Source: Candidatus Poribacteria bacterium (GTDB lineage: Bacteria; Poribacteria; WGA-4E; WGA-3G). Taken from it: a DNA stretch of 64,000 nucleotides. The notes beneath the pieces were generated by a model. It was not told where the DNA came from. It saw only the letters and a program-made list of their open reading frames with translations, and made no database searches. The stretch spans positions 2,528,001 to 2,592,000 of the forward strand of contig OZ251518.1 in NCBI GenBank assembly GCA_965242965.1, given 5' to 3'. Made by a program: the position numbers and the translations under genes. Within the stretch, counting starts at the first letter, position 1. Every line of letters begins with the position of its first letter. Below are positions 1 to 20,670 of the stretch, one piece after another.

Positions 1-474
1 GTGCGTCAGCGGCGCGTCGAACGGAATACTCCATTGCCGCGAGAGGTGCTGTTGTTCTGGGTGCTTGGCAATGGTATAGGCATCCAAACTTTGTGCGTCA
101 GGATTCGGCACAATGAGGAGTCCATCAACGGCGAGTAGCCCCGGTAAGCCTTCCGCTGTTTCTATCTTGGGCATCTCCACAGCCCCCGAAAAGAACCCAC
201 AATTGTCGGCGAGTGGGACATCGGAGGATTCGCCTCCCGGCAGTACCGCGGTGCGCTGCGGATTCGCATACGCCATCTCCCAGGCCGCCGGTTTTTTAAG
301 TTTTTGCCCACACTGCGTGCAAAAGCGAGCGAACGCGCGGTTCCAATGCCCATCAGGACATCGGAAGGCAACGGTAGCACACTGCTGGCAATACGCCACA
401 TTTGAGGGGTGTCTGTCATTCGCCGCGGGCAAATCGCAGGCGGTGTTTTGGCGTGCAGTGGGACAGATGTTCAT
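1..474 (-). CDS. Double zinc-ribbon protein with probable PQQ-like beta-propeller, partial (runs off the window start; absent from the ORF track)
   Basis: Hand translation from ATG at 474, which overlaps the upstream TGA (ATGA): MNICPTARQNTAC...YCQQCATVAFRCPDGHWNRAFARFCTQCGQKL...WEMAYANPQRT...; open to position 1. Confidence 0.75.
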   Translation of the reverse strand, partial: MNICPTARQNTACDLPAANDRHPSNVAYCQQCATVAFRCPDGHWNRAFARFCTQCGQKLKKPAAWEMAYANPQRTAVLPGGESSDVPLADNCGFFSGAVEMPKIETAEGLPGLLAVDGLLIVPNPDAQSLDAYTIAKHPEQQHLSRQWSIPFDAPLTH

Positions 475-1112
475 TTTCCGTTCTCCATCTCGGAATAAAC
501 GAGGATAATCTCAATTCGGCGGTTTTTCGCGCGGCCTACCTTTGTCCAATTGGTGGCAACCGGGTGGTGTTCGCCGTATCCTGTCGCGTTGAGCGTGCGC
601 GCGTCGATGCCGATTTCATCAACGAAAAGCCGTAATACGGCAATTGCGCGTGCCGATGAGAGCTCCCAGTTTGATGGAAACTGCTCAGTCTCAATCGGAA
701 TGTTGTCGGTATGTCCGTTGATTTGCACGCTCTGGTATAACCGCTTGCCTTTCTCGTCGATTTTGTAACGCTGCAATAATCTCCCGACAGCAGTGAGCGT
801 CGTCCGTCCGAGGGGTTGCAATTCTGCTTCCGCGGTGTGGAAGAGGATCCTGTCGCTAAAACTAAACCGTTGCAGGTTTCCATCGCTTTCAATTGCAATG
901 GTGCCGTTCGCTATCTCTCTTGCAAACGCTTTCGCGAACGCCGCTTGGATAGTCTCCTGCTTTTTCTCCATCCGAATTTTCAGAATCAGTTTGCTGTTGG
1001 CAATGAACTGAATGAAAAGGAAGAACAGGAAGATAAGCAGCATCGCGATTGCGACATCGGTAAAAGCGGGCCAGATATTCAGAACGGAAGTCTGCCGCAT
1101 GCGTAAATCCAT
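471..1112 (-). CDS. MotB/OmpA-family protein (ZorB-like)
   Basis: TM helix with conserved Asp (WPAFTD); OmpA-like domain (GHTD, SNWELSSARA, NRRIEI); GGGGAG RBS before ATG 1112. Confidence 0.9.
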   Translation of the reverse strand: MDLRMRQTSVLNIWPAFTDVAIAMLLIFLFFLFIQFIANSKLILKIRMEKKQETIQAAFAKAFAREIANGTIAIESDGNLQRFSFSDRILFHTAEAELQPLGRTTLTAVGRLLQRYKIDEKGKRLYQSVQINGHTDNIPIETEQFPSNWELSSARAIAVLRLFVDEIGIDARTLNATGYGEHHPVATNWTKVGRAKNRRIEIILVYSEMENGK

Positions 1113-1126
1113 TGAAATCTCCCCCG

Positions 1127-3259
1127 CTACTTTTCTCCCCGGAACCACCGGTGGATTGCAGCATTCCAACGGGCTACCCAGGTTTGACGCGCGATGCTCT
1201 GAAGGCCGTCTAGTTTTTGAGAAATTTCCCGCGTTTGACGCGCAGTGTCCTGAAGGCCGTCTAGTTTTTGAGAAATTTCCCGCAACAAATCCATTACAGC
1301 CGGTTGCAAATTGTCAGGAGTTTGCGGACCTCCTGCCCCCGGCGCAGGTTGTTGGGGAAGTTGTTGCATATTCTGGACTAAGTTGCGGAGGAGTTGATTC
1401 TGCTCCTGAGTCAGGCCGCCTGACTCAACGAGATGGCTTTCAATTTCCTGCAACACCCGATTTTGCGTCTCCAAAGTTGGACGAATCTGCAGCTCATTTG
1501 CGAGATGTCTAAACAACTGGTTCTGCGTATCAAGTGCCGCACCAATCTGCAACTCATCCGCAATTCGTTGAAGTAGCTGGTTTTGCACATCAAGTGCCGC
1601 ACCAATCTGCAACTCGCCTTCCAATCGCCGGATGGCCTGTAGGATGTCCCGTTGAATCGCCTCGCTGGCCTGAAAGGATGCGCCAAACTGTTGTCCGTTT
1701 ATGTCAAGTTGTTCTTTAATCCGCTCAAACGCCTGATTCTGTGCCTCAATTGCCGGGCGGATTTTCAACTCATCTGCTAATTGCGTCAGGACCTGGGCGA
1801 CATTCTGCTGCTGTCCTGTGATGCCGCGAATCTCGGCGAGCAACGCATTAGAAAGATTGTTAAGGAGTTCAGATTGTGAGTCCTGATACTCGCGAAGTGC
1901 GGCGTGCGATGCCTCCCGTTCCTCCGTTACCAATTGCATCAGGTTATCTGTCAATTGCGTGAGGAACTGCACGACATTCTGCTGCTGTCTTGTGATGTCC
2001 TGCATCTCGGTGAGCAAGTCATCGGAGAGTTTCTTAAGGTATTCGGATTGCGATGCCTGATACTCACGAAGTGCGGCGTGTGATGCCTCCCTCTCCTCCG
2101 CTACCAATTCCATCAAGGCACGCACCGTATCCTGCTGCCGCTCTGATACGGTTTGAACTTGGGTTTGCAAGGCAGTGGAGAGTTTGTCAATGAGCTCGGA
2201 TTGCGATGCCTGATACGCTTGAATCGCCGCTTGCAACGCTGCGCTCTCGTCTTCTAACCGCGGCACCGACTCTTCTAGGGCTTGGTTCAGCGCGTCTTGA
2301 TAGCCGCCAATTTCAGCCCTTGACTGCGCTGTCATGTCCTTAAACGAGTCAATAGCAGATGTAATCACCACCTGATACTCGTTGATTCCCGCTAGGCTTT
2401 TCAGGAGATTCTCCGCGGTTTCGTCAAACTTGAATGCCAGTATCTGTTGTTGCTCAAGATACCCACCCGATGAAGTCCGCATGAATTCTTGAATAGCGTT
2501 CTGCATCGCTGCGACATTTTCATCTGTAGTGAACTTCAACATTTTGGTGCATTCGGCGAGTTGCTTAACAGCGGAATCAATGGAGGCTTCCGGCGTTTGC
2601 GTGAAACGCGGTAATATTTCCTTTGACACGAATTCCTCAAGCGCGGTGCGAAAAGACGATTGCACGCGATTGAAAACCAAACCGACGAGACCTAAAACCA
2701 GGGACGTTAGTAGCCCGGCTATCGTGGTGCCAAACGCCGTGCTCATCCCGCCGACGGTGAGTTCCAGTGTCTTAGAAATTTCAGCGAGTTCCTCAAAATC
2801 TTCGATGCCTGTCACAATGGGACGCACTTCGGTGAGCGCGGTAATTAAACCCCATAATGTCCCCACCAAACCGAGGATAATCAGGATACCGAGGATGTGG
2901 TTCGCGAAACTGGCTCTTCGGCTCTCCTTGCCGGTGAGAATGTCAGCGAGGGCATCGTTGTCAACCTGTCCGCCGCTGTCTCTAATTTGGAGCAAGGCCT
3001 TGATGCGCTGGTAAATAATGCTTTGATCCCACACCTTCGTCTCGTCGAGTATGGCAAGCAACTGGGAGATATCGCCGAACCCGTGGTTGCGCGTAAAATA
3101 GGTTTGGACGCGCCACAGATTTCCCCACTGCCTTCCTATCAACGCAATTTGCAAAAGGTAGTTGATAATACCAATTACAAAGAAACCGCAAATCGTCCAG
3201 ACGATGCTGCTACCGATGTCATTGTCAAGGGTGAAAATAAAAATGAAAAGTTCGCCCAC
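1127..3259 (-). CDS. MotA/TolQ/ExbB-family membrane protein with ~500-aa coiled-coil tail (ZorA-like)
   Basis: LGLVGTLWGL and GMSTAFGTTIAGL TM motifs, then a long Q/E/L-rich helical tail with internal repeats; directly upstream of the MotB-like gene. Confidence 0.8.
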   Translation of the reverse strand: MGELFIFIFTLDNDIGSSIVWTICGFFVIGIINYLLQIALIGRQWGNLWRVQTYFTRNHGFGDISQLLAILDETKVWDQSIIYQRIKALLQIRDSGGQVDNDALADILTGKESRRASFANHILGILIILGLVGTLWGLITALTEVRPIVTGIEDFEELAEISKTLELTVGGMSTAFGTTIAGLLTSLVLGLVGLVFNRVQSSFRTALEEFVSKEILPRFTQTPEASIDSAVKQLAECTKMLKFTTDENVAAMQNAIQEFMRTSSGGYLEQQQILAFKFDETAENLLKSLAGINEYQVVITSAIDSFKDMTAQSRAEIGGYQDALNQALEESVPRLEDESAALQAAIQAYQASQSELIDKLSTALQTQVQTVSERQQDTVRALMELVAEEREASHAALREYQASQSEYLKKLSDDLLTEMQDITRQQQNVVQFLTQLTDNLMQLVTEEREASHAALREYQDSQSELLNNLSNALLAEIRGITGQQQNVAQVLTQLADELKIRPAIEAQNQAFERIKEQLDINGQQFGASFQASEAIQRDILQAIRRLEGELQIGAALDVQNQLLQRIADELQIGAALDTQNQLFRHLANELQIRPTLETQNRVLQEIESHLVESGGLTQEQNQLLRNLVQNMQQLPQQPAPGAGGPQTPDNLQPAVMDLLREISQKLDGLQDTARQTREISQKLDGLQSIARQTWVARWNAAIHRWFRGEK

Positions 3260-3364
3260 GCAGTTATCTCCATGAAGTGAAAACGATTAAGACTTATCCA
3301 TAAAGCATACCAAATTTCACCAAAAAAGTCAAATTCAATTTTTTCAAGCGCGCAGAATGCATTT

Positions 3365-3745
3365 GAAAGCGCGCCTACCGTCCGTAGGAGAGACCTCCCG
3401 GTCTCGATGCAATAGGGCTGCGCGCCTACCGGGGCCGCGGCGGCAGAAAGTCCCCCTTCATCGTAGGGCTTGGGCCCTCGCATGCCACACGCGCATCCGA
3501 GCGGGTTCCCCTCGCCAGCGTGCGTGCACGTGGAATCCAACGATCGCGGGGGACAGGCCCCCGCGCTACGAAAAAAAACGGCACTTCACCGTAGGGCGAG
3601 GGCCTGTCCCTCGCCATGCTGCGGTCTATCGAAAACTCGCGGAGGACAGGCCCCCGCGCTACGGGCACATCGAGACTAGGAGGTCTCTCCTACCGGAAAT
3701 CAAGCCCCGAGGTCTCTTCTACCGGCATGCATCGAGACCGGAAAC
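3365..3745. repeat. Mosaic cluster of GTAG-led palindromic REP-like units
   Basis: Contains GTAGGGCGAGGGCCTGTCCCTCGCC, CGCGGGGGACAGGCCCCCGCGCTAC and GTAGGAGAGACCTCCCGGTCTCG units that recur throughout the window. Confidence 0.9.
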
Positions 3746-3777
3746 GGCATTCTTTTTGAAGGCAGTCGAAAATAATT

Positions 3778-3805
3778 TGACATATTTCACAAAATGTAGT
3801 ATAAT
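3778..3805 (+). promoter_or_regulatory. Sigma70-like promoter for the ABC substrate-binding gene
   Basis: TTGACA...TATAAT near-consensus hexamers at canonical spacing, upstream of AAGGAG RBS and ATG 3890. Confidence 0.65.
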
Positions 3806-3889
3806 TAATGATAGTTTTTAAGAGTAGGGAAACGTTGCAAGGAAACCGTTTTTTCTGCCGTTCCCCGCTCAAACCTAAAGGAGATATTT

Positions 3890-5524
3890 ATGAATACGAA
3901 ATATAGCGCAGTTCAAACACGCGCATTTTCAATTGTCACGGCGATTTTTGTCGCACTGTTTTCACTCTCGGCAGTGTTGCTGTCCGGGTGTGAACGAATG
4001 AGTGAAGTGGTAGCCCCACCGGATACCACAGCGGCGACGTTGAAGGTTGGCGTGATTCAGCCTTCAAAGTATTATACCTCTTACACCAAAGGCGCGGAGC
4101 TCGCCCGGGCTGAGCTCAACGCTGCAGGGGGTATCCTCGGCATGCAGGTGGAGTTTGTCCCCCGGGATAACCAGACTTCTCCGGATGCGTTTCCTATGCC
4201 GGAAGCAACTATCCAAGTCGCCACAGAGTTAGTTGAGATGGAGAAAGTCGCGGCCATCCTCGGTCCAATTTTCTCAACGAACGCGGTGGAGATTGCGCCG
4301 ATTATTGAGATTCCGACACTCGCTGCCGCAACGGATGCGAGGGTCACAAAGGCAGGCGAGTTTATCTTTGTCGTCGGCGCGCCTAACAGTTTACACGGCC
4401 AGGGCATTGCGGAATTCGCCGTGAATGAACTGGAAGCCAAAACAGCCGCCACGATTCACCAAGACGGCGATGTCTACTCCATGGGACATCTCAACGCTTT
4501 CAATGAGCGTTTTAAGGCACTCGGTGGAGAGATTGCTGTCGCCGATGTTTATCAATCCGGCGATACGGACTTTAGCGCGCAACTCGCGAAAGTGAAAGCC
4601 GAAGCACCGGATGTCCTCCTCCTCTCTAGTTTCGCACCTGAGGTGCCCTTGTTGATTAAACAAGCGAAGGAGATGGAGATTACTGCAACCATCATTGGTG
4701 GTGATGGATGGGCGGATCCCGAGCTATTTTTCACCACGTTAGAAGATAACACGCCGTTAGACGGAAGTTACTTCACAACGGGACTTTCCGACCTCTCAAA
4801 CGCGCCGCCAAGCACACAGACGTTCATCGCGGCCTATACTGAAATGTATGGGATGGCACCCGATAGTGTGGCAGCGTCGGGCTATGACGGGATGAAACTC
4901 TTGGCCATGGGCATTAAAGAGGCGGCATCAACAGATGCAGTCGCCGTGCGCGATGCAATCGCCGCAATCACGGACTACGCCGGTGCAACGCTCATCTCTC
5001 GTTACGATGAAAACCGCAACCCTGTCAAAGAAATTGGCGGTGTTCTGGAAATTCGTGATGGGAAAACCCAGCCCTACGTCGCAATGCCAGAAACGGATGC
5101 GATGCCTGATGCAGGGGACATGACTACGGATACTCCCGCAACGACAGATGAAACCGCGGGTGCTGAGGACATGCCTCCGGTAACAGATGAAACCGCGGGT
5201 GAGGATATGCCTCCGGCAACAGATGAACCCACCGATGAGAAGGCAGATCCTGCTAAAGAGAAGGACGCTGCTGATGCAGGGGACATGCCCAAGGATACTC
5301 CCGGGGCGACAGATGAACCCACCGATGAGACAAAGGATCCTGCTAAAGAGAAGGATACTGCCGGTGCAGGGGACATGCCCAAGGATACTCCCGGGGCGAC
5401 AGATGAACCCACCGATGAGACAAAGGATCCTGCCGATGCGGGGAACATGACCAAGGATAAACCTGCAACGACGGAGGATGAAACCGACGACACGACAGAC
5501 AAGTCTGAGGATACATCTAAGTAG
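3890..5524 (+). CDS. Branched-chain amino acid ABC-type substrate-binding lipoprotein (LivJ/LivK family) with acidic repeat tail
   Basis: Lipobox LLSGC; LNAAGGILG, DFSAQLAKVK, IIGGDGW and GYDG motifs; C-terminal 30-aa D/E/T/P repeats. Confidence 0.9.
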   Translation: MNTKYSAVQTRAFSIVTAIFVALFSLSAVLLSGCERMSEVVAPPDTTAATLKVGVIQPSKYYTSYTKGAELARAELNAAGGILGMQVEFVPRDNQTSPDAFPMPEATIQVATELVEMEKVAAILGPIFSTNAVEIAPIIEIPTLAAATDARVTKAGEFIFVVGAPNSLHGQGIAEFAVNELEAKTAATIHQDGDVYSMGHLNAFNERFKALGGEIAVADVYQSGDTDFSAQLAKVKAEAPDVLLLSSFAPEVPLLIKQAKEMEITATIIGGDGWADPELFFTTLEDNTPLDGSYFTTGLSDLSNAPPSTQTFIAAYTEMYGMAPDSVAASGYDGMKLLAMGIKEAASTDAVAVRDAIAAITDYAGATLISRYDENRNPVKEIGGVLEIRDGKTQPYVAMPETDAMPDAGDMTTDTPATTDETAGAEDMPPVTDETAGEDMPPATDEPTDEKADPAKEKDAADAGDMPKDTPGATDEPTDETKDPAKEKDTAGAGDMPKDTPGATDEPTDETKDPADAGNMTKDKPATTEDETDDTTDKSEDTSK

Positions 5525-5591
5525 TCAGGGTGTTTCTGGGACAGATACGCTGTCAGTTGCTCTGTGGATAGCACAGACGCAAAACGATAAG

Positions 5592-5630
5592 GGTAGACGC
5601 GCTTTGTAAGCGCGCCTACCCGTTTTTATT
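5592..5630 (+). terminator. Hairpin plus T tract, built from a GTAG repeat pair
   Basis: GGTAGACGCGCTT-TGT-AAGCGCGCCTACC followed by TTTTT, downstream of the stop codon. Confidence 0.55.
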
Positions 5631-5637
5631 GCAAGGT

Positions 5638-6900
5638 TTTGCGAGGGACAGGCCCTCGCTCTACGCGCACTAAAAACGTCCCTTCAAATCGTAGGGCGCG
5701 GGCCCTCGCAGGTTTCCACACGCGCAGGCGAGCGGGTTTCCCTCGCCATCGTTTCGCGCAAGTCAACCCGTGCGAAGGCCAGCACGCCGCCACCCCTATA
5801 GGTCAAGATCGCCCGATCTTGACCCGTTTGTGATCAGGCGATCACAAACTACAGAGCACGCCCCCTTCATCGTAGGGCGAGGGCCTGTCCCTCGCCATGC
5901 AACGATCGCGGGGGACAGGCCCCCGCGCTACGGCACCTAAAAACGTTCCTTCAAATCGTAGGGCGAGGGACAGGCCCTCGCCATGCGTCGGTCTTAGCAG
6001 CAAACATCCGTGGTTTCTGGGTTGCGGGCGTTTTCCGCCTAGGTTGAGAGATCGCGGGGGACAGGCCCCCGCGCTACGGCACCTAAAAACGTTCCTTCAA
6101 ATCGTAGGGCGAGGGCCTGTCCCTCGCCATGCCAATCGTCTGAAGCAGGATTTACAAGATTATAGGATTTACAAGATTATAGGATTTACAAGATTAGGAA
6201 CTCTAGTCTCCAACCGATGCAGAGCTGCAGGAAAACGATGCTTTAGGTCCGTAGGCCCTGAAGAAGCGGGCCTTTGCAAAAACAGCCTCACCAATCACAA
6301 GGGAGATAATCCTGAAAATCGTGTAAATCTTGCAAATCCTGCTTCAGACACCTAGAGGCATCGCGGGGGACAGGCCCCCGCGCTACGGTGCAGGCAGCAA
6401 ATTGCATCAAGACCGGGAGGTCTCTCCTACCGGGGGACAGGCCCCCGCGCTACGGTTGTCAAGACCGCCTCCGTTTCATCGTAGGGCGAGGGCCTGTCCC
6501 TCGCCGTGCCTAAGGTCCTTTAGGTCCTTAATGTCTATAGTTCCTCGCGACACGATGAACCTAAGGTCCTTTAGGTCCTTAATTGCAGTTGTGCCGTATG
6601 TCTCATTTCATTAAGGATCTAGCGGACCTTGAAAACGATGACAAGCACGTTTGTCTATAGACATGCAGGACCTAAAGGACCTGAAGAAGTGGGCCTTTGC
6701 AAAAACGGCATCACCAATCACAAGGGAGATAATCCTGAAAATCTTGTGAATCTTGTGAATCCTGCTTCAGACACCTAGAGGCATCGCGAGGGACAGGCCC
6801 TCGCGCTACGGTATCGCGGGCGTTATGATTTTGCGAGGGACAGGCCCTCGCGCTACGGTGAGCATGCGTTATGGTTTTGCGAGGGATAAGCCCTCGCATT
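5638..6900. repeat. ~1.3-kb mosaic repeat cluster
   Basis: More than 10 GTAG palindromes, an 18-nt tandem AGGATTTACAAGATTAT-type unit, and AGGTCC/GGACCT units. Confidence 0.9.
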
Positions 6901-6917
6901 CCGGTGAGCAGCGCGCA

Positions 6918-8048
6918 TTATGGCATATCAGGTGGAACAGGCAGATGCGCTACGACCCCTGCATGGTCTGACGGCCAGATACCCGAAGGAAGCATCTCTC
7001 CCTGTTTATCTCCCACCGTGTGCGTTACCACGGGACCGGCGAGCTTATAATTCCGCACGAAAACCTGATCGATGCGATAAGACAACCCACTCTCCATATT
7101 CCCAAGCCCAGCGGCTTGACAACAGGTATTCCCAGTAACACCCGCCTCCATCTGCCATACGTCAACGTATCCCGCCGATAACAGCATCTGGTAGGCAGTG
7201 CCATCGGGTGCCGCCGTGTTAAAATCGCCTAGTAAGATGATAGGCAAGGTTTCATCCTGAAGCAGCGTTATCAACTCCTGCGCTTGCGCAACCCGAATCG
7301 GTTCACCGAACGCCTCTAGGTGCGTATTAACAACGCGATAGGTAACCCCGCCAACCGTCGCATCTATCGCGACGTAACCTCTCGGCACTTCCAGCAGGAG
7401 CGTCTCAATAGAGAGCGCGTTCATAAAGTGCGCGCTTTCCACGCGTGAGACGATGACATCGCTGCGCGTGAGAATCACATCGGAGTCAGTCAGTCGCGCG
7501 TCGTCAATCCCGTTGTCAGTGAACATCGGCATCTCAATATCAATGTTTTCGACTTTAGCGGCGACCTGATAACTCAAACCTTCCGCTTGTAGCGCGTCCA
7601 TCAAAATTTGCTGAAAATCAAGGACGACCTCTTCCGCCTGCACTTCGCCGCCGGCAATTCGATCTCCCGGGGACTGCCGCCTCACCAAGGATACCTCTTG
7701 TAAGCCGACGATATGCGGTTGCGATGCCTTGATAGACTTGGCAATCGACGCGGCGCGAGACGGAAAATCAGAAGCGATAACGCCGTTATACATGTTAGCG
7801 ACTTCTGTCGGCACCTGGAGCAGGTTCGTTGTCGCCAAAAGCGGGTCTGCACTCGCGCCGACGTAGACGTTGTAAGTCATCACCGACAGTTGTTCCACTT
7901 CGGGGGCATCAACAGGCGGTGCGATGACGGTATCGGTTATTTTCTCGCATCCCGAAAGGAGAGCGAGAATGATTAAAAGGGAAAAAACCATTTGCGAGGG
8001 AAAGGCACTCGCGCTACGGTAACGTGTTGCTGTTCTGAGTTTTGGCAT
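6918..8048 (-). CDS. Endonuclease/exonuclease/phosphatase family lipoprotein
   Basis: MTYN, GLQE, NTHLE, GDFN, RIDQ and SDH motifs; lipobox LLSGC; start uncertain. Confidence 0.85.
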   Translation of the reverse strand: MPKLRTATRYRSASAFPSQMVFSLLIILALLSGCEKITDTVIAPPVDAPEVEQLSVMTYNVYVGASADPLLATTNLLQVPTEVANMYNGVIASDFPSRAASIAKSIKASQPHIVGLQEVSLVRRQSPGDRIAGGEVQAEEVVLDFQQILMDALQAEGLSYQVAAKVENIDIEMPMFTDNGIDDARLTDSDVILTRSDVIVSRVESAHFMNALSIETLLLEVPRGYVAIDATVGGVTYRVVNTHLEAFGEPIRVAQAQELITLLQDETLPIILLGDFNTAAPDGTAYQMLLSAGYVDVWQMEAGVTGNTCCQAAGLGNMESGLSYRIDQVFVRNYKLAGPVVTHTVGDKQGEMLPSGIWPSDHAGVVAHLPVPPDMP

Positions 8049-8075
8049 ATTTATCTCCAAATGCGTTGAGTGGGA

Positions 8076-9458
8076 TTATTGCACGCGTTGCGCATACAAA
8101 AACTCCCCCTCCATCGCGGTTAATTTGACGCGTAAAATGTCGTTAATCCACGTCTCTGGCCCTGTTTTTGGCCCTGTTTTTGTCGATGAATCCGACGTAT
8201 CCACGAGGACACGCAGATAGTTATCCGTAAAACCGGTGAGATGATTTTGCGCTTTGCCTTCCCGGCTGTCTTCCACGAGCAGTTCTGCGTGTTTTCCGAG
8301 CATCCGCCGCCGAAATGCCGTGCCGAGCCGCTCGCCTAACTGAATCATCGCGCGACTGCGCGCCGCGGAAACGTGCGGAGAAACCGCGTCTTCGTAGGTG
8401 GCAGCCGGTGTGCCTTTGCGCGGCGAATACCGAAACACATGCAACTGACTGAAGCCGATCTGTTCCACAAATCGGAGCGAGGTTTCAAAATCTACCTCGG
8501 TCTCACCGGGGAATCCTACCATGATGTCAGTCGTCATCCCGACATCATCGGTAAAGAGTGTGCGCAGTTTCTCAACGAGGTGTGCGAACTGCGCGGTGGT
8601 ATAACGGCGACGCATCCGCCGCAAGATGTTATCGGAACCAGATTGCAGCGGGAGATGGAAGTGCGGCATGCACTTCGGCAACGCAGCCATCCGTTCGGCG
8701 AGGATATCCGGAAAATACATCGGTTCAATTGAACTGAACCGGATGCGCGCGATGCCTTCGATTCCGTGAATCTGTTCCAAGATGTCGGCGATATTTTTGT
8801 CTCTACCCGTGTCCAATCCGTAAGCACCGAGGTGCACACCGGTAATGACGATTTCCTTAATGCCGTTATCGGCGATGCGGCGCGCTTCCTCAACGATGTC
8901 AGCAAGTGGCCGGCTCGTCATGCGGCCCCGCACATAAGGAATGATGCAGTAGGTGCAGAAGGCACTGCATCCATCTTGCACCTTGATGAGGGCGCGCGTC
9001 CGTTTCCCTGCACTACTCACGCCGCTGCTGAAACGCGCATGTTCGCGAACGGCATCGTGTTGCACCGGTTGAAGAGGGAGGAGCGTTTTCGGTGTTGTGG
9101 GCAGGCGTGGCATTTCAGCGTCTAACGCGTCTAGATACGTCTGAAAATCGGCTTTTTCGCGGTTGCCGAAGACGCAGGTTACGCCGGGGATTTGCTCAAT
9201 CGCACCCCGGTCGCTTTCGGCGTAACACCCTGTGACAAGCACTTTAGCATCCGGATTCTCGCGGAGGGCACGCCGAATTACCTGGCGTGCCTTCTGGTCC
9301 GCCGCATTGGTGACAGTGCAGGTATTGATAAGATAGAGATCGGCGCGAGGGGTGTCCTCAACGACGGTGTAGCCGTTGTGGAGGAGCGTCTCCTGCATCG
9401 ACTGCGTATCGTATTGGTTCACCTTGCATCCCATCGTAATGAGTTTAACTGTCTTCAT
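8076..9458 (-). CDS. mtaB: tRNA t6A37 methylthiotransferase MtaB
   Basis: GCKVNQYD, NTCTVT, radical-SAM CSAFCTYC, ITGVHLG; follows rsmE. Confidence 0.93.
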   Translation of the reverse strand: MKTVKLITMGCKVNQYDTQSMQETLLHNGYTVVEDTPRADLYLINTCTVTNAADQKARQVIRRALRENPDAKVLVTGCYAESDRGAIEQIPGVTCVFGNREKADFQTYLDALDAEMPRLPTTPKTLLPLQPVQHDAVREHARFSSGVSSAGKRTRALIKVQDGCSAFCTYCIIPYVRGRMTSRPLADIVEEARRIADNGIKEIVITGVHLGAYGLDTGRDKNIADILEQIHGIEGIARIRFSSIEPMYFPDILAERMAALPKCMPHFHLPLQSGSDNILRRMRRRYTTAQFAHLVEKLRTLFTDDVGMTTDIMVGFPGETEVDFETSLRFVEQIGFSQLHVFRYSPRKGTPAATYEDAVSPHVSAARSRAMIQLGERLGTAFRRRMLGKHAELLVEDSREGKAQNHLTGFTDNYLRVLVDTSDSSTKTGPKTGPETWINDILRVKLTAMEGEFLYAQRVQ

Positions 9459-9504
9459 TTCTTTGTTGTTCCTAGCGGTTGTTCGAGGTTTGATGTGCCG
9501 CCTA

Positions 9505-10320
9505 TTAGTAATATTCATAAGCGACAGCGGCGACAGCGGCAATCGCGGCGGTTTCTGTCCGCAAGATATTTTGTCCGAGTGTTACAGGAATGCATCCGTT
9601 TTCAATAGCGGCGTTCACTTCTTCCACCACAAACCCGCCTTCCGGTCCGACGAAAATTGAGATGGTTTCAGGTTTAGGCGAGTCCAAACTGTTCTGTGCC
9701 TGTCCTTCGCGCTTTTCACGTGGCGCGAGATATTTTTCTGTCTTTGCTCCCTCGCCATGCCTCAACACCGTTTTGATGTGTTGTTCCGTTACAGATTCGC
9801 AGCAGATGAGACTGCGCGTAAACCGTTTGACTTGCGCGAGGCACGCCTCAAACTGTTGGGGACCTGACAATTCGGGCAGCCAAGCACGTTTGCACTGTTT
9901 CGTTGCAGAGACAACGACGCGCTGCCACCGTTCACACCGTTGCTGACTCGGTTTCTGCAACGAACGTTCCGAATGCATCGGGATTATCTGTGTCACACCG
10001 AGTTCTGTCGTCTTTTGCAGAATGAGTTCCATTTTATCGTGCTTTGGCACTCCCTGAAAAAGCGTGAGCGAAGGCAAACGCGGGGTGTGAAATTCAGCGG
10101 ACAGAATCTCTGCCTGCGTAGTATCCGCCATCGCTGTATCAAGCACCTTCGCGATATAGACAGTGCCTTTGCCATCAATCAGACGGATGTTTTCCCCCGT
10201 TCGGATGCGGCGCACATTTCGGAGATGGTGATGCTCATCGCCTGTTATCATCGCGATGCCTCCATCAAACTGCGTGGGCGGAACGTAAGACGTGTGCATT
10301 CGTTTCTCTGTTATGTTCAC
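9505..10320 (-). CDS. rsmE: 16S rRNA m3U1498 methyltransferase RsmE
   Basis: QKTTELGV, VGPEGGF, LGQNILRTETA. Confidence 0.95.
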   Translation of the reverse strand: MNITEKRMHTSYVPPTQFDGGIAMITGDEHHHLRNVRRIRTGENIRLIDGKGTVYIAKVLDTAMADTTQAEILSAEFHTPRLPSLTLFQGVPKHDKMELILQKTTELGVTQIIPMHSERSLQKPSQQRCERWQRVVVSATKQCKRAWLPELSGPQQFEACLAQVKRFTRSLICCESVTEQHIKTVLRHGEGAKTEKYLAPREKREGQAQNSLDSPKPETISIFVGPEGGFVVEEVNAAIENGCIPVTLGQNILRTETAAIAAVAAVAYEYY

Positions 10321-10339
10321 GGGCGGCTTGAACGATCCG

Positions 10340-11017
10340 CTAGGAACAACAAAAACACGCTTGCCGCAATTGCTTAATGACCTTTTCCGGATGCGGACTT
10401 CTGAAAATAGCCGTGCCTGCGACGAGGATCGTCGCGCCGCGCTGCACGGCGAGTGGTGCTATTTCGGTTGTTACGCCGCCATCAGCAGAAATCTCAACGT
10501 CCAAGTTTTGTTTGTCAATCCTTTGCCGCAAGCGCGCTATTTTTTCAAGCGCGCTCGGTTGAAACGTTTGTCCACCGCGTCCCGGCTCAACGCTCATCGG
10601 TAGCACGAGCGCAATACGTGAGAGATAGGGGAAAACCGCATCAACCGATATCCCCGGTGATAAAGCCACGCCTGCCTTGATACCGTGCGCTTGAATTGCC
10701 GAGATGACAGTTTCCGGTGCATCGGCACTTTCGATATGGAACGTAATCATATCCGCACCCGCTGTTGCAAGCGCGTCAATATAACGAAGTGGGCGCGTTA
10801 CCATGAGATGGACATCAAAAGGCACATCTGTCGTCTTGCGGAGCGCGGCGATAGTCATGGGACTGATAGCGAAATAGGGAACGAATTCGCCGTCCATGAC
10901 ATCAAAATGGAGCAGATTTGCCCCGGCCGCGACTATCCGCGTCACCTCTTCACCGAATCGGGTGAAATCGGATGCCAGCATCGAAGGTGCAATTTTCGCA
11001 ATGCGTTCAATATGCAT
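10340..11017 (-). CDS. rpe: Ribulose-phosphate 3-epimerase
   Basis: IAPSML, HFDVMDG, DVHLMV, MSVEPG, ADGGV. Confidence 0.95.
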   Translation of the reverse strand: MHIERIAKIAPSMLASDFTRFGEEVTRIVAAGANLLHFDVMDGEFVPYFAISPMTIAALRKTTDVPFDVHLMVTRPLRYIDALATAGADMITFHIESADAPETVISAIQAHGIKAGVALSPGISVDAVFPYLSRIALVLPMSVEPGRGGQTFQPSALEKIARLRQRIDKQNLDVEISADGGVTTEIAPLAVQRGATILVAGTAIFRSPHPEKVIKQLRQACFCCS

Positions 11018-11049
11018 AATAGGTGCAAGAGTAAGCCGTCATCAACATC

Positions 11050-11290
11050 CCTGTTCTTGCTGGAAATCCCGCTCAATCTTGGAAATCCGAGCAGGATTAT
11101 CACGGTCACGCCTGTCAAGACAATCAGGTTTTCCTGATTGTCCCTCTTCCAAGATTTCACAGGATTAGGTCGCTGGGGCACCGGACACCGTTTTGGCAGC
11201 CCCCCGCGGTCTCGGTGCATCAGAAACCTAGCATCTTGCTAATCTTGCTCAATCTTGGAAATCCTGCTCAATCTTGGAAATCCTGCTCAG
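11050..11290. repeat. AATCTTGGAAATCCTGCTC-type short repeats
   Basis: Degenerate 9/10-nt subunits; same family at 12780-12925, 29044-29080, 56640-56712 and 62215-62293. Confidence 0.8.
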
Positions 11291-12766
11291 AAATAAGTCT
11301 GTTCGCCGCCGTAATGCCGTTCCGCCTTTGGACGTTCGTCTACCTGCCACGGCAAGGTGATAGGCAGCGTGCCATCCGCAAAATAGGCATCCGTTATCTG
11401 CCAAAACTGCAGGCGCGGGTAGTGCTTACCGTTATGCTCCAGCGTGCCTGCCGCTTCGGCGAGATTTCGCATGCCGCGCGTCACCGGATGCAACGTGATG
11501 AAAATGCCGAGGGCGGCATCGTTATCTTGCATCGCCGTTCGGAAGGCGCGCACCTGATTCGGGTTCAAACTCCTCCCGGATTTTACCTCGGCGATGACAG
11601 GCAGTTGCGTCTGCGTCGCCTCGGCGAGGTGATGATTCTCCCAAAGCACCACCTTCCCACTGCCGTCAAACCCGCCATCGTTGGTATTGGACGTAGGCGA
11701 AAGCCCGAGTCGGGTGACGGCCCAGTTGGCGAAATCATGCGGATTCTGCTCGGCGAGGAGGATGGCATCCTGCCATGTCCCCGGATACCCCTCAATGGTA
11801 TAATCCACCTTTGGACGAAGCCCGTGACGTTCGCGCAGCCGACGCTCCATCGGTTCTAACGCAAGCACCGTCAAGTCAATGCCAACCCAGTGCCGCTTGA
11901 GGCCGTGGGCGGCATCTAACGCTGTGCCACAGCCACAAAACGGATCGAAGACAATGTCGCCGGGGTTCGTGGAGGCTTTGATGATGCGTTCCAACAGCGC
12001 GAGCGGCTTCTGTGTCGGATAAATTCGCTCCGGGGACCAGGTCTGCAATGAATTAATATCTGTCCACCAGTCTGGCATCGTCGCTCCCCGTTCCAAATCT
12101 CGCACCTTGCCATCGATGCTCGTTCCGCCTCGACTTGATACCAACTTACGGCTGGCCTCAGAATAAGGAACATATTGCTTGTTGAACACGTTCCCCTTGC
12201 CTTTAGCGTAGAAGAGTATGATGTCATGCTTACGAGCGAAAGCGTTCTTAGGCACACCCCCGCCTCTATAACACCAAATAATCTCGTTTCGGCAATTCGT
12301 CGCGCCGAAAATCGTATCCATCATCACTTTCAAATAGTGACTCGCGTGCGGATCGCAGTGCAGATACACACTCCCGCTCGGTGTTAGCAACCGCCAAATC
12401 TCCGCCAAGCGCGGTGCCATGAAGGCGAGATACGCGCGCATCGATTCTGCATCGCTGATTGGGTTAGACCCCCCCCTTCAAAATATTGTCAAAACCACTT
12501 AAACACGCCGCTAAGTTGTCCATCGTCTCGACAAGTTCCGGGTGTCTGCCATCGTAATGGAGCACGGCCGCCTGATTGTGGCGCGCCGCATCGTCCCATC
12601 GCCAGATGTCGTCAAACGCCTTGCGTTGCGCTTTGGAGGCGGCGAGGAAAATGTTGTAGTTGCGGCCGCTGTTGAACGGCGGATCGAGATAACAGATGTG
12701 ATAACTGCCTGTCTGCATCTCGCGCATGACATTGAGGTTATCACCAAAATAGAGTGCGTTTTTCAT
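11287..12766 (-). CDS. Beta-class N4C/N6A DNA methyltransferase fused to an Mrr-like endonuclease, copy 2; frameshifted at G8 (12469-12476)
   Basis: 5' ORF has motif IV DPPF; 3' ORF has YPTQKP, motif I DPFCGCGT and D-x(n)-EVK. Removing one G joins the ORFs (LKGGSNPISDAESMRAYL). Confidence 0.85.
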
Positions 12767-12925
12767 ATTTTCGTTAGCCTGAATCCCGGAAATCTTGGGA
12801 ATCTTGAAAATCCTGCTCAGAAATCCATCTTAACGAAGGGAAAAAGAGACATGGTTATCAACGAAATCCCTCATCCTGGAAAGCTTGGGAATCTTGAAAA
12901 TCCTGCTCAATCTTGGAAATCCCGC

Positions 12926-14402
12926 TCAAAAATAAGTCTGCTCGCCGCCGTAATGCCGTTCCGCCTTTGGACGTTCGTCCACCTGCCACGGCAAGTGGAT
13001 AGGCAGCGTGCCATCCGCAAAATAGACATCCGTTATTTGCCAGAATTGCAGGCGCGGATAGTGCTTACCGTTATGCTCTAGCATGCCAGCGGCCTCGGCG
13101 AGGTTCCGCATGCCGCGCGTCACCGGATGCAGTGTGATGAAAATACCGAGGGCGGCCGCCGTATCCTGCATCGCCGTGCGGAAGGCGCGCACCTGATTCG
13201 GGTTCAAACTCCTCCCCGATTTTACCTCGGCGATGACAGGCAATTGCGTCTGCGTCGCCTCGGCGAGGTGATGATTCTCCCAAAGCACCACCTTCCCACT
13301 GCCATCAAACCCGCCATCGTTGGTATTGGACGTGGGCGAAAGCCCCAGGCGAGTCACTGCCCAATTGGCGAAATCGTGCGGATTCTGCTCGGCGAGGAGG
13401 ATGGCATCCTGCCATGTCCCCGGATACCCTTCAATGGTATAATCCACCTTTGGACGAAGCCCATGGCGTTCGCGCAGCCGACGCTCCATCGGTTCCAAAG
13501 CCAACACGGTTAAATCAATGCCAACCCAATGGCGTTGCAATCCATGCGCGGCATCTAACGCTGTGCCACAGCCACAAAACGGATCGAAGACAATGTCACC
13601 CGGTTTAGAGGAAGTTTTGATAATCCATTCCAAGAGCGCGAGCGGCTTCTGCGTCGGATAGCCGAGACGTTCTTTGGACATGGCATTCAGCGATGGCATG
13701 ACAAGCACGTCGTCAGGCGTTTTGCCTTTCGGCATCGCTTTGCCGGATTGCCCTCCCTTGGCGTATCGCCACTCTGTCATGCCGCTCTCAAAAGGCACAA
13801 GGATTTCATCGCGGTTGAAAGTGTAGTCCTTCGGCGATTTGCTATACCAGAGGAGGACATCGTGAGCCCTTGCGAGCCGCCGTTTGCCGCGCGAGGCATT
13901 TTTGTAATACCAGATAATTTCGTTCTGAAAGTTCACCGAACCGAAGATAACGTCCAGCATGCATTTCAGATAGTGACTCGCGTGCGGATCGCAGTGCAGA
14001 TACACACTCCCATTTGGCGTTAGCAGCCGCCAAATCTCTGCCAAGCGCGGTGCCATGAAGGCGAGATACGCAAGCATTGATTCAGTTTCACTTTGTCCTC
14101 TCGACCCCCCCCTTCAAAATTTGGTCAAAACCCGTTAAACAGTCTGACAAATTGTCCATGGTTTCAACGAGTTCAGGGTGCCGCCCATCGTAGTGAAGGA
14201 CAGATGCCTGATTTTCGCGCGCCGCGTCGTCCCACCGCCAGATGTCGTCAAACGCCTTGCGTTGCGCTTTTGAGCCGGCGAGGAAAATGTTGTAGTTGCG
14301 GCCGCTGTTAAACGGCGGATCGAGATAACAGATGTGATAACTGCCTGTCTGCATCTCGCGCATGACGTTGAGGTTATCGCCAAAATAGAGCGCGTTTTTC
14401 AT
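12926..14402 (-). CDS. Beta-class DNA methyltransferase-Mrr-like endonuclease fusion, copy 1; frameshifted at G8 (14105-14112)
   Basis: Same architecture; removing one G gives LKGGSRGQSETESMLAYL in frame. Confidence 0.85.
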
Positions 14403-14441
14403 ATTTAGAACACCATAAAAACCGATAGGAACAACAAAAAA

Positions 14442-15419
14442 CTACTGATAGCGGACATCACGCAGTTTATTCTCATCTACGTAGATGCTCACCCGTGTGC
14501 TACCGAAAACCCGCACGCCTTGCTTCTCCAAGTCAATGACGGTGCCGGGGGCATATTTCCTGTCTACCACGGTGCGTTCGCCGTGTTCATCAACGACGAC
14601 GATACGGATGTGCCGCGACAGATTTCCTTCTTCGCTCACTTGATGCTTCAAGGGGAGTAGCCTGCCGATGTTTCTCGTGTTATCGCGCGTGCCGCTGACT
14701 TCCAATTGAACGATGCCGCCGCTTTGAACTAACTCGCCGGCTGCGGGTTTCTGCGTAATAATCCTCCCTTCCGGAATCTTCGGGTGCGGACTATATTGGA
14801 TGTCGGCGTGGAGCCCTGCTTCTTCTAGTTTTGGCATCACCTTACGTAGGGGTTGCGTGCGGAGATCTGGCAGCTGGATGCGCTGCGGCATCGCACCACG
14901 GCTGACCAGGAGGTTCACATCGCTGCCGCGCTGCTGCCCAACACCTTCCAGCGGCGTTTGCGCGATGACGGTGTCCGGCAGATACGCCGCCGAATGAACG
15001 TAGGCAACCCGATTCGGGCGAAACCCGGCGGCGGTGAGGGCAGCGCGCGCCTCATTCAAAGGTCTGCCGATAACTGAAATGACCGGGGCTAACTCAGCAC
15101 CGATGCTCACCGCAATTTCCACCGGCTGATAGGATTTTACCCGGAAGTTCGCCGGTGGATTTTGGGAGACGATTTCCCCTTTCGGCGCACTGTTACTTGC
15201 CTGCTGAATAGTCTCTGCCGGGCGCAACCCGGCTTCATCTAGCACGCGCACCGCCTCATAGTAGGTTTTTCCCGTGACGTTCGGGACAAGGACCTCTTCT
15301 GTGCGAACCCACCATGGAATCACGATGAGCACCGTCAGCAAGCCGACAATGCCGAGCACAATCAAGCAGTAGAGTGAGACTTTGAATATCGCAAATAAAG
15401 GGTTGTTGATGCCTTTCAT
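14442..15419 (-). CDS. Membrane-anchored PASTA-domain protein
   Basis: One TM helix plus three PASTA repeats (VPNVTG, VISVIG, LPDLRT); adjacent to fmt. Confidence 0.9.
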   Translation of the reverse strand: MKGINNPLFAIFKVSLYCLIVLGIVGLLTVLIVIPWWVRTEEVLVPNVTGKTYYEAVRVLDEAGLRPAETIQQASNSAPKGEIVSQNPPANFRVKSYQPVEIAVSIGAELAPVISVIGRPLNEARAALTAAGFRPNRVAYVHSAAYLPDTVIAQTPLEGVGQQRGSDVNLLVSRGAMPQRIQLPDLRTQPLRKVMPKLEEAGLHADIQYSPHPKIPEGRIITQKPAAGELVQSGGIVQLEVSGTRDNTRNIGRLLPLKHQVSEEGNLSRHIRIVVVDEHGERTVVDRKYAPGTVIDLEKQGVRVFGSTRVSIYVDENKLRDVRYQ

Positions 15420-15440
15420 TATTTTTTTGTAGAGGTTCCG

Positions 15441-16427
15441 TTATGGCGGAGGCAAAAATCTCTCGCCGGTTTTGAGTTGGTAACCGTTGACAAAATCGCG
15501 CGCGGCCATCGCTTTCTTCGTTGCAGGCTGAACTTGCAAGAGTTCAAGTGTTCCTTCACCTGTAGCGACGCGGAGCTGCCCTCTGCCCGTAATTTCAATC
15601 GTTCCGGGAATAGGGGACAAAGCCTGCGAGTCAAGAGTTTGTGGGGGACAGGCCCCCGCGCTACGGAGAGAACATGGTAGACAACGGAGAATCTTGAGCC
15701 GCAGATTCTCTCTGAAAAAGGCATACGCCCCCGGCCAGCCTTCGGTACCTCTCACAAGATTGTGAATAGCGGTGGCAGAACAATGCCAGTCGATGCATCC
15801 TGTCTCTTTTGTGAGGCGTGGTGCGCGCGTCGCTTCGTCGTGACGCTGCGGCGTTGCGGACGGCGGTGCAGCTGCCGGCATCTCTTTTAGCACCTTCAAC
15901 AACAGATTCGCGCCCAAGCACGCTAACTTCTCCATCAATGTGACAGCGGTATCCGCATCTTGAATCGGAATTCGTTCCGCACAGATAATATCACCGGTAT
16001 CCTCGCCTGCATCCAACAACATTAACGTGATGCCTGTCTCTGTCTCGCCATTAATAAGTGCCCATTGCACCGGGGCAGCCCCTCGGTATTTCGGCAGGAG
16101 CGACGGATGCAGGTTAATCGTGCCGCACGGCGGGATGTCTAACATTGATTGCGGTAGCAGCTGCCCGAAAGCGGCGACGACGATGACATCCGGCGCGAGC
16201 CGTTCCAGCGTTCGGATAAAACCGCGCTGCCGCACCTTTTCCGGTTGATAGAACGGCAGGTTGTGTTGTTCTGCGACTACCTTGACAGGTGGCGGCGTGA
16301 GCCGTTTGCCGCGGCCACTGCGCCGGTCTGGTTGCGTGACGATACCAATGAGTTCAGATTCGTGGGCAATGAGTGTTTTCAGTGCTGGCACTGCAAATTC
16401 ACTTGTGCCCATAAATACGATACGCAC
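15441..16427 (-). CDS. fmt: Methionyl-tRNA formyltransferase
   Basis: RIVFMGT, NLHPSLLPKYRGAAP; in-frame repeat-derived insert near the C-terminus. Confidence 0.97.
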   Translation of the reverse strand: MRIVFMGTSEFAVPALKTLIAHESELIGIVTQPDRRSGRGKRLTPPPVKVVAEQHNLPFYQPEKVRQRGFIRTLERLAPDVIVVAAFGQLLPQSMLDIPPCGTINLHPSLLPKYRGAAPVQWALINGETETGITLMLLDAGEDTGDIICAERIPIQDADTAVTLMEKLACLGANLLLKVLKEMPAAAPPSATPQRHDEATRAPRLTKETGCIDWHCSATAIHNLVRGTEGWPGAYAFFRENLRLKILRCLPCSLRSAGACPPQTLDSQALSPIPGTIEITGRGQLRVATGEGTLELLQVQPATKKAMAARDFVNGYQLKTGERFLPPP

Positions 16428-16495
16428 TTAGAAACTCCAGATTCGTTCAGTGTAGCCCCCGTTCTTGATTGCGTCGGGACTCTACCGGCTCAAAA

Positions 16496-17083
16496 TTAGA
16501 ACCGAATAAGCAGGATAGGCACTGCAACTCCCGCCGCCGGTTCATTTGCCCACCGATTGAGCCTATTTCCTGAAGGAACGAAAGGGATGGGTGTCCCTCG
16601 CGCTACGGTAATCGGGACATTATGAGGGAGACGCGCGACAGGGCCCTCTATCGGCTCGCCTTCTACCGGCTCGCCTTCTTCAGTCGGTGGCGATGGAGGT
16701 GGCGGTGGCGGTTCAGGCTCCGGAATGCGTGGGGCAGAAATGTCTACATCGCGCGTGCGCCACCAATCCCACACCCCGATGAACAACGATAAGGATGCCG
16801 CGCCGATGCCGATTATCCGATAATCCCGCGGCGACAACTCCGGCGCAATCTGATTTTCGCGATACATCTTGACACCGCGCACCACCAAATAACTTTGAAC
16901 GGCGGTAAATGGCACGGAACTCAGCGTGATAATTTCAAACCGACGCAGCGCGCTTTCGTGATAGGTTTCCGCGGGGCGCGCTTGCTGCTGTTGTCCTTCC
17001 GGCGGTGCCTGCTGCGCTTGCGCCGCCGGAAGTATTGAAAGAGTTAGGCTGAACGTTAATATCTGAACCGTTAATTTGAACAT
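16496..17083 (-). CDS. Hypothetical exported/membrane protein, Pro-rich
   Basis: Signal peptide (PAAQA), two hydrophobic segments, poly-Pro stretch; in operon between lspA and fmt. Confidence 0.7.
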   Translation of the reverse strand: MFKLTVQILTFSLTLSILPAAQAQQAPPEGQQQQARPAETYHESALRRFEIITLSSVPFTAVQSYLVVRGVKMYRENQIAPELSPRDYRIIGIGAASLSLFIGVWDWWRTRDVDISAPRIPEPEPPPPPPSPPTEEGEPVEGEPIEGPVARLPHNVPITVARGTPIPFVPSGNRLNRWANEPAAGVAVPILLIRF

Positions 17084-17159
17084 GGTTGCCTCGGCTCGCG
17101 AGGGACAGGCCCTCGCGCTTTGATATTTGGTATGAGGGAGATGTGCGGTACTCCCTCGC

Positions 17160-20271: not shown

Positions 20272-20354
20272 AAGAACCCTAGCATCAGCGAGCGTGCCCG
20301 TAGAAGAGTGCCGAGGGCGACGCTTGCGCTTTTGTAACGGGAAAGACGTTGGGA

Positions 20355-20636: not shown

Positions 20637-20670
20637 AAAAAGTCTACCTTTCGCGAGTGGAAGTTTGCTC

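Follow-up and report, generated by a model that had tools for sequence, protein, structure and literature searches.

Zorya is the sole characterised long-tailed stator-like motor system, and it passes a signal from the cell envelope to nucleases (PMC11946911). A long ZorA tail is common to all Zorya types (PMC11946911), and the types are set by the partners of the ZorAB motor, namely ZorC and ZorD, ZorE, or ZorF (DUF3348) and ZorG (DUF2894), with the gene order zorFABG in type III (PMC8565338, PMC11946911, PMC11890865). A second described group of genes surrounds FtsZl1, the FtsZ-like family of Makarova and Koonin (PF13809, Tubulin_2), which is sparse and scattered in prokaryotes (PMC9871819). 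In 2010, FtsZl1 was proposed as the centre of a system that remodels membranes together with vWA proteins, GTPases and OmpA-family proteins, the commonest feature of that set being a vWA-type gene adjoining FtsZl1 (PMC2875224). Here, we analyzed a 64,000-nucleotide stretch of a Candidatus Poribacteria genome (contig OZ251518.1 of assembly GCA_965242965.1, positions 2,528,001 to 2,592,000; hereafter the window), whose left end carries a ZorAB-like motor pair followed by a third gene, G3. The comparison with related loci suggests, at slightly better than even confidence, that these genes form the promoter-proximal end of an operon of eight genes, with the remainder past the left window edge. We also lean, if only by a little, towards regarding the cluster as a form of the FtsZl1-vWA-OmpA systems that contains ZorAB rather than as a described Zorya type.

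The ZorAB-like pair

All three genes are read from the minus strand. The ZorA-like gene (3259..1127, 710 amino acids) has a GTG start with GGAGA upstream. The ZorB-like gene (1112..471, 213 amino acids) has its ATG at 1112, 14 nucleotides past the ZorA-like stop and behind a GGGGGAG; a longer open reading frame (ORF) with a TTG start begins at 1169. The ATG of G3 (474..1) overlaps the ZorB-like stop as ATGA (474-471), the translational coupling already noted in an earlier reading of this DNA (the original prediction), and the gene is cut by the window edge after its first 158 codons.

The Pfam model MotA_ExbB matches residues 111-202 of the ZorA-like protein (E 5e-5, 23.5 bits against a cut-off of 22.9). 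In a hydropathy scan, three hydrophobic, transmembrane-like segments were found (14-32, 122-140 and 178-196), and the third is followed by approximately 500 residues without any hydrophobic segment. At E<=0.1, PADLOC listed nine matches, seven of them to ZorA models, with ZorA3 on top (E 2.4e-16, residues 121-506). The predicted architecture is a MotA/ExbB-type head with three transmembrane segments, to which a helical tail of ~500 residues is attached; a MotA-like protein with such a tail was part of the original prediction. Searched as a single sequence against the PDB it gave no meaningful match, and a search with the head (residues 1-260) returned only relatives that are unnamed or labelled 'hypothetical protein'. 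Two tandem duplications lie in the tail on the minus strand, one of 174 nucleotides (58 codons; 1772..2115, 2.0 copies with 81% matches in Tandem Repeats Finder) and one of 51 nucleotides (17 codons; 1182..1283, 'REISQKLDGLQ...ARQT' twice) near the tip. In relatives the ORF ranges from 554 to 735 amino acids. A tail-tip motif, PG-(L/I)-(Y/F)-RW...RRWF, was found in 14 of the 17 related loci described below; it is divergent in the window and in loci L011 and L012, whose tips are shortened or degenerate, and missing from L007, where the ORF (7318-9258) stops without it.

The ZorB-like protein has a single transmembrane segment (20-38) with Asp19 immediately ahead of it, within 'AFTDVAIAML', and matches the peptidoglycan-binding OmpA model of Pfam (E 9e-16) as well as ZorB3 of PADLOC (E 7.9e-29, 98.7 bits). 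The aspartate is retained in the window and in all 17 related loci (18/18 sequences), in agreement with the conserved residue claimed at the outset, and the homologues are 64-94% identical to the window protein. ZorA3 and ZorB3 being the best models, the PADLOC hidden Markov models bear out the description of the pair as ZorAB-like.

Part of these matches could also be accounted for by a common stator or energiser (flagellar MotAB, ExbBD or TolQR) placed by chance beside unrelated genes: Pfam places the A subunit in MotA_ExbB, and the best matches of the B subunit are peptidoglycan-binding domains, of MotD in NCBIfam and, in PDB sequences, the periplasmic domains of MotB and PomB (E 1.2e-22). 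Score alone does not separate the B subunit from generic MotB/OmpA-like proteins (MotD 125.7 bits, ZorB3 98.7 bits). However, the MotD score is far under its cut-off of 283, the matches to MotD, MotB, MotS and TssL-type models all stay under cut-off, and none of the NCBIfam MotA, ExbB and TolQ models matches the A subunit at E<=0.1. ExbB and TolQ are short proteins without a long tail, and their partners ExbD and TolR are not known to carry an OmpA domain, unlike the pair analyzed here with its tail of about 500 residues after three transmembrane segments and its OmpA-bearing partner. In addition, flagellar genes were absent from the 11 ORFs scanned (3890-20271), so that this part of the original prediction holds for the region covered, and the pair is linked to six other genes in every related locus reaching far enough. 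Flagellar MotAB was therefore rejected on the NCBIfam scores and the lack of flagellar genes among the 11 scanned ORFs, and ExbBD/TolQR on the tail, the OmpA domain and the missing ExbB/TolQ matches; we consider an ordinary stator or energiser very improbable.

By sequence profile, no other profiled family comes as close to the window pair as ZorAB does. The pair shares with Zorya ZorAB the three-transmembrane MotA/ExbB head, the long helical tail and the A-then-B adjacency, and with Zorya ZorB the aspartate at a single transmembrane segment and the OmpA-like peptidoglycan-binding domain, and its closest Zorya profile match is type III. The partners, in contrast, differ. Upstream of the ZorA-like gene lie intergenic repeats and a divergent binding-protein gene, and not ZorF (DUF3348); downstream, neither ZorG (DUF2894) nor ZorC, ZorD or ZorE was found with Pfam and PADLOC. 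In Poribacteria, the pair is instead accompanied by the propeller protein G3, a tubulin-like GTPase, Hsp70-fold proteins and two membrane proteins, one of them vWA-like and the other small.

Gene content of the cluster in relatives

A genome scan with the G3 alignment as query resulted in 17 confirmed loci among 120 pattern matches, a lower bound, since the scan used two exact peptide patterns. Sixteen of them carry a Poribacteria title, and the remaining one is entitled 'uncultured bacterium'. The ZorA-like gene, the ZorB-like gene, G3 and a vWA-like fourth gene occur in the same order in 17/17 loci, so that the linkage of the third gene to the pair, for which the original prediction had proposed a check, is conserved. 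The 4-nucleotide overlap between the ZorB-like stop and the G3 start is present in 14/17 loci, with a gap in L002, L003 and L004, and the operon genes are all on one strand with short gaps.

Clustering of all ORFs of the related loci revealed five conserved genes after G3, as expected from the earlier suggestion of further genes to the left of the window. All on the strand of the pair, they are a fourth gene of ~640 amino acids (17/17 loci), a fifth of ~110-140 and a sixth of ~1050-1160 amino acids (16 loci each, 16/16 reaching that far), a seventh of ~900 amino acids (15 loci, 15/15 reaching that far) and an eighth of ~410 amino acids (14 loci, 14/14 reaching that far). Wherever a gene is missing, the fetched DNA stops before it, in the fourth gene in L001, in the sixth in L007 and in the seventh in L004. 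The gene order is fixed across loci diverged down to 46% identity to the query in G3, and all eight proteins show positively correlated pairwise identities (Spearman 0.25-0.82; 91 pairs from 14 loci). These correlations fit inheritance of the operon as a unit and prove nothing more. In L004, an insertion (12908-13921) that carries a 337-amino-acid reverse-strand ORF, transposase-like in appearance, interrupts the vWA-like gene, and a broken partial duplicate of the tubulin-like gene (region 18122-20767) follows the intact copy.

A search with the 158-residue fragment of G3 returned 120 longer relatives, mostly of ~450-470 amino acids, all without a precomputed Pfam domain; one bears the name of a Candidatus Poribacteria hypothetical protein. 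Across an alignment of 30 full-length relatives, eight residues (C5, C14, C30, C33, C40, H44, C53 and C56) never vary and thus provide ligands enough for two zinc sites, in line with the predicted double zinc ribbon; the Pfam ribbon matches are weak (Zn_Ribbon_1 E 0.0013, below cut-off; DZR E 0.43). The predicted WxMxxxNPQRT motif is likewise recovered in this alignment, with W66, M68, N72, Q74, R75 and T76 invariant and P73 present in at least 90%. For the propeller, a PQQ-type Pfam model matches two of five relatives weakly. An AlphaFold2 model built on the alignment has a mean predicted local distance difference test score (pLDDT) of 80.5 and 32 strands after residue 98, with low confidence at residues 1-22 and 63-93 and high confidence in the all-beta part from ~98. 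Its best PDB fold matches in Foldseek are BamB chains (E 1.8e-11, TM-score ~0.5, ~13% identity), followed by tetrathionate hydrolase and YxaL, which argues for the propeller that the original prediction had proposed.

BamB is a periplasmic lipoprotein with an export signal or lipobox. G3 shares the fold of BamB and of eight-bladed PQQ-like propellers, but a hydropathy scan of one full-length relative (P0080) found neither a hydrophobic segment nor a signal peptide, and G3 carries a Cys-rich zinc ribbon. Since a hydrophobic segment is lacking and the zinc ribbon is N-terminal, we read G3 as a probably cytoplasmic protein with a zinc ribbon and a PQQ/BamB-like beta-propeller. In an exhaustive search of 1.84 billion cluster representatives, the G3 profile had 136 matches at E<=0.001, of which 41 reached E<=1e-10 and 17 reached E<=1e-30; multi-repeat propeller proteins make up the weak end, and the family proper is small. 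Several distant relatives of 447-462 amino acids, whose N-termini were inspected, retain the zinc ribbon and a W/A-M-x-x-N-x-x-R motif. PADLOC gave no match for G3 at E<=1, consistent with its description as a non-canonical partner.

The fourth protein has an N-terminal hydrophobic segment, a second transmembrane segment near residue 500 and a tail of ~130 residues. DVSGSM and TD(G)D motifs are invariant, and its Atlas neighbours are VWA clusters at 0.94-0.96, suggesting a bitopic membrane protein with a vWA-like external domain. The fifth protein is small, with 3-4 hydrophobic segments, and is identified as a membrane protein only, whereas a family or fold could be named for the other five partners. 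The sixth protein (~1150 amino acids) is matched by the Pfam model Tubulin_2 (PF13809, FtsZl1) over residues 6-374 (E 1.8e-44, in L002), and its glycine-rich loops, GLGTTG and GSLCGGxCSG, do not vary among 13 sequences. Searches of PDB sequences with the profiles of the fourth and sixth proteins gave no match at E<=0.1.

The seventh protein carries a CxxC...CxxC ribbon at its N-terminus, together with Ig-like domains and a nucleotide-binding domain of the Hsp70 type (HSP70 E 2.1e-29; DnaK/HscA models 1e-31 to 4e-30, under their cut-offs), with invariant DFGTTNS and DFGGGT(I)D motifs. Profile comparison of G3 with the seventh protein found no similarity and so gave no sign of kinship between the two zinc ribbons. 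In the eighth protein, the model contains two beta-beta-beta-alpha-beta-alpha units and a C-terminal beta-sandwich, and the best 40 or more PDB fold matches listed are all Hsp70, DnaK or BiP (E down to 3.4e-13). Against PDB sequences, its profile gave only matches at E>=0.15; aligned to the profile of the seventh protein it reached 1.4% probability, and the aligned stretch is the Hsp70 phosphate-2 region. As a lead with moderate support from the modelled fold, the eighth protein may be a second Hsp70-fold protein with degenerate, unconserved phosphate-loop motifs. An Atlas lead to DUF5716_C (0.95) for this protein was dropped, as Pfam did not confirm it.

Relation to FtsZl1 systems and possible function

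The main text of the 2010 proposal contains no occurrence of MotA, and MotA-like/OmpA pairs are found in its supplementary table only (PMC2875224). Supplementary file 5 of that paper gives, beside FtsZl1, a 'MotA/TolQ/ExbB membrane protein' with an OmpA-family protein in two Deinococcus species, an uncharacterised 'B7' protein with a COG1360 motor protein in cyanobacteria, and a DnaK-like protein in Magnetospirillum (PMC2875224). Among plasmid records, we found six plasmids with an FtsZl1-like gene, four of them from Deinococcus and one each from Nostoc and Cylindrospermopsis; a plasmid tblastn search with the ZorA-like query gave no matches. The tubulin-like, MotA-like and OmpA genes stand side by side in all four Deinococcus plasmids with an FtsZl1-like match. 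Here, the order of six genes is a hypothetical protein of ~420 amino acids, a membrane protein of ~108 amino acids, the tubulin-like, MotA-like and OmpA proteins, and an LRV/DUF2336 repeat protein (L018, L020, L021 and L023). The Cylindrospermopsis gene stands alone. In hhalign comparisons, the D. deserti MotA-like protein matched the poribacterial ZorA-like profile at 97.1% probability over ~340 columns and the two FtsZl1 proteins matched at 99.5% probability, and the Deinococcus pair also matches the PADLOC ZorA (E 1.6e-7) and ZorB (8.7e-6) models.

Three observations concern the surroundings of the plasmid genes. An IS630 transposase gene lies directly past a shortened tubulin-like gene in D. 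radiophilus. In Deinococcus sp. QL22, the tubulin-like cluster adjoins AAA ATPase and DUF2357 genes. On the Nostoc punctiforme plasmid pNPUN01 (L022, 1-10297), a vWA gene and then a tubulin-like gene come right after genes for CHAT-domain and caspase-family proteins and a PstS-family binding protein.

The Deinococcus form resembles the poribacterial one in its Tubulin_2 protein of ~1100 amino acids preceded by a small membrane protein, and in the MotA-like and OmpA-family pair within the operon. The two differ in gene order, the motor pair standing first in Poribacteria but after FtsZl1 in Deinococcus, and in the Deinococcus MotA-like protein, which is 411 amino acids long with a shorter tail. 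Moreover, none of the six D. deserti genes compared corresponds to G3 or to either Hsp70-fold protein (hhalign probabilities <=1.2%). Unlike in the FtsZl1 set of 2010, a kinase or P-loop GTPase partner was not found in the poribacterial cluster. An FtsZl1 gene is present in 16/16 related loci reaching far enough and an OmpA-family protein in 17/17. Since ZorAB-like and FtsZl1 genes are linked in two phyla far apart, the best place for the cluster is among the FtsZl1 systems, as a variant that contains ZorAB. Searches of the open literature returned no description of this gene combination.

Several observations weigh against this picture. The window itself carries only 2.3 of the eight operon genes, the remainder being drawn from relatives; the closest of these, L001, ends inside the fourth gene, and the related loci end 100-250 nucleotides past the eighth gene, with the genes beyond it out of view. 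With regard to the motor, the NCBIfam model antiphage_ZorA_2 scores the ZorA-like protein at E 0.0033 and 16.5 bits against a cut-off of 100. The ZorA-like profile reaches the solved E. coli ZorA (8qyy/8qyd) only via the coiled-coil tail, at E 0.0026-0.02 and amid many unrelated helical proteins. Pfam VWA models match 0/14 fourth-gene proteins at E<=1, which is why we call the protein vWA-like and not vWA, and across these 14 members Pfam gave no consistent family at all. The eighth protein is without a consistent Pfam match in 11 members, and its model is moderate (pLDDT 66.6, TM-scores of the fold matches 0.24-0.36). Finally, neither a nuclease nor a helicase nor any other recognised effector domain was found in the six partner proteins.

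The original prediction had taken the locus for an undescribed Zorya-related defence or envelope-sensing system. What stood is the ZorAB-like pair with a non-canonical partner: by profile the pair does not group with ordinary MotAB, ExbBD or TolQR, canonical zorC, zorD or zorE genes do not follow downstream in the relatives, and the third gene stays linked. The assignment to defence found no support, the cluster being better placed with the FtsZl1-vWA-OmpA systems. In its strict form, the defence reading makes the cluster an undescribed Zorya subtype, in which ZorAB would sense phage attack on the envelope and recruit the downstream proteins as effectors. It would be in keeping with ZorA3 and ZorB3 as best profile matches, with the long tail found in all Zorya types (PMC11946911) and its length variation through repeats, and with the sparse, scattered occurrence of Tubulin_2 (PMC9871819). 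Further points in its favour are the plasmid FtsZl1 genes near caspase and CHAT genes in Nostoc and near AAA ATPase and DUF2357 genes in Deinococcus sp. QL22, and the insertion sequences that disrupt one poribacterial and one Deinococcus copy. However, PADLOC matched none of ZorC, ZorD, ZorE, ZorF and ZorG among G3 and the five downstream proteins, a recognised effector domain is missing, and the gene upstream of the ZorA-like gene is not ZorF. The flanks in the window, L006 and L002 are housekeeping or metabolic, the gene order is constant down to the 46% identity in G3, and flanks common within subclades suggest long vertical inheritance. Altogether, we regard a Zorya subtype as rather unlikely.

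The opposite possibility is a lineage-specific machine for envelope or membrane remodelling, in which the ion-driven motor would work on a tubulin-like/Hsp70-like assembly without any role against phages. Such a machine matches the 2010 prediction for FtsZl1-vWA-OmpA operons (PMC2875224), and agrees with the conservation of the operon as a unit, the strong conservation of the ZorB-like protein, the housekeeping neighbours and the fact that half of the operon proteins are membrane-embedded or envelope-facing. Yet the chromosomal position varies between subclades, the window being syntenic with L001 only, one of the 17 copies is broken by an insertion sequence, and homologous modules are plasmid-borne in Deinococcus and Nostoc. 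Furthermore, searches of the open literature found no experimental work on any FtsZl1 system, while the sole characterised long-tailed stator-like motor is a defence sensor (PMC11946911). In this exclusive form, we hold the proposal to be tentative, and no likelier than the Zorya subtype. As to the role of the cluster in broader terms, remodelling of envelope or membrane comes first, at somewhat below an even chance, a role in conflict or defence follows with a slightly lower one, and some other function is the least probable of the three.

By homology to Zorya ZorAB, the ZorAB-containing FtsZl1 variant could work as follows. Two ZorB-like chains would anchor to peptidoglycan via their OmpA-like domain, and ion flow past Asp19 would turn the ZorA-like pentamer of a 5:2 complex, the pentameric tail of about 500 residues extending tens of nanometres into the cytoplasm. 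The conserved operon linkage suggests that the tail may relay a signal from the envelope, or mechanical work, to proteins in the cytoplasm. From the same linkage, the G3 propeller, translationally coupled to the ZorB-like protein, may be the adaptor, the tubulin-like GTPase and the Hsp70-like ATPases the output, and the vWA-like domain a second contact on the envelope side.

On a more general level, tailed ZorAB-type rotary motors might not be confined to Zorya defence but form the engine of a separate, older, FtsZl1-centred class of machines, in which rotation or displacement of the ZorA tail controls a tubulin-like/Hsp70-like assembly at the envelope. This idea is speculative, and we give it a low probability. 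If true, it would mean that an ion-driven motor is coupled to a cytoskeletal element, which is not described in bacteria, and that Poribacteria have kept this coupling as a unit of eight genes, with Deinococcus carrying a simpler form of it. The cluster presents a ZorAB-type motor fixed to a different output, comprising a tubulin-like GTPase, two proteins of likely Hsp70 fold, a vWA-like protein and a zinc-ribbon propeller, and it offers the FtsZl1 family a testable candidate for an energy or signal source. For genome annotation, ZorAB profile matches alone are insufficient to call phage defence.

Flanks and further features of the window

The upstream flank in the window contains genes for a periplasmic binding protein, an EEP-family protein, a MiaB-type radical SAM protein, an RNA methyltransferase, a ribulose-phosphate epimerase and other housekeeping functions, and it is syntenic only with L001, the closest relative. 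Other loci have different metabolic-gene flanks, common within subclades. A promoter-like site (TTGACT, 17 nucleotides, TATGCT, with TG) lies upstream of the ZorA-like start (3304..3332, minus strand) and has 9/12 consensus matches. It is rated weak, because it comes from a consensus scan only and four such sites were found in the region against 2.4 expected from shuffles. Rfam gave no match at E<=0.1 in window positions 1-7000, and no tRNA was found in 1-12000.

The divergent periplasmic binding protein (3890-5524, plus strand; Peripla_BP_6) has a C-terminal acidic, Thr/Pro-rich tail of ~150 residues, made of 36-, 72- and 90-nucleotide tandem repeats (5144-5487). Farther away, ~8 kb from the ZorA-like gene, two tandem paralogues on the minus strand (11287-12441 and 12926-14077) each encode an N6/N4 DNA methylase (E ~1e-40) fused to an Mrr_cat restriction-endonuclease domain.

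The intergenic regions are packed with a palindrome resembling repetitive extragenic palindromes (REP-like), with the consensus GCGAGGGACAGGCCCTCGC and the variant GCGGGGGACAGGCCCCCGC, at 3546-3657, 5641-6897 and ~50 more sites up to 63130. It gave 82 strand-matches at <=3 mismatches, against 0.02 expected in shuffles, and read-through of this element explains spurious 'GRGPVPR' ORFs. Two intergenic arrays were also observed, a 17-nucleotide unit in 2.9 copies with 100% matches (6147-6196) and a 46-nucleotide unit in 2.7 copies that contains the REP-like palindrome (6786-6911).

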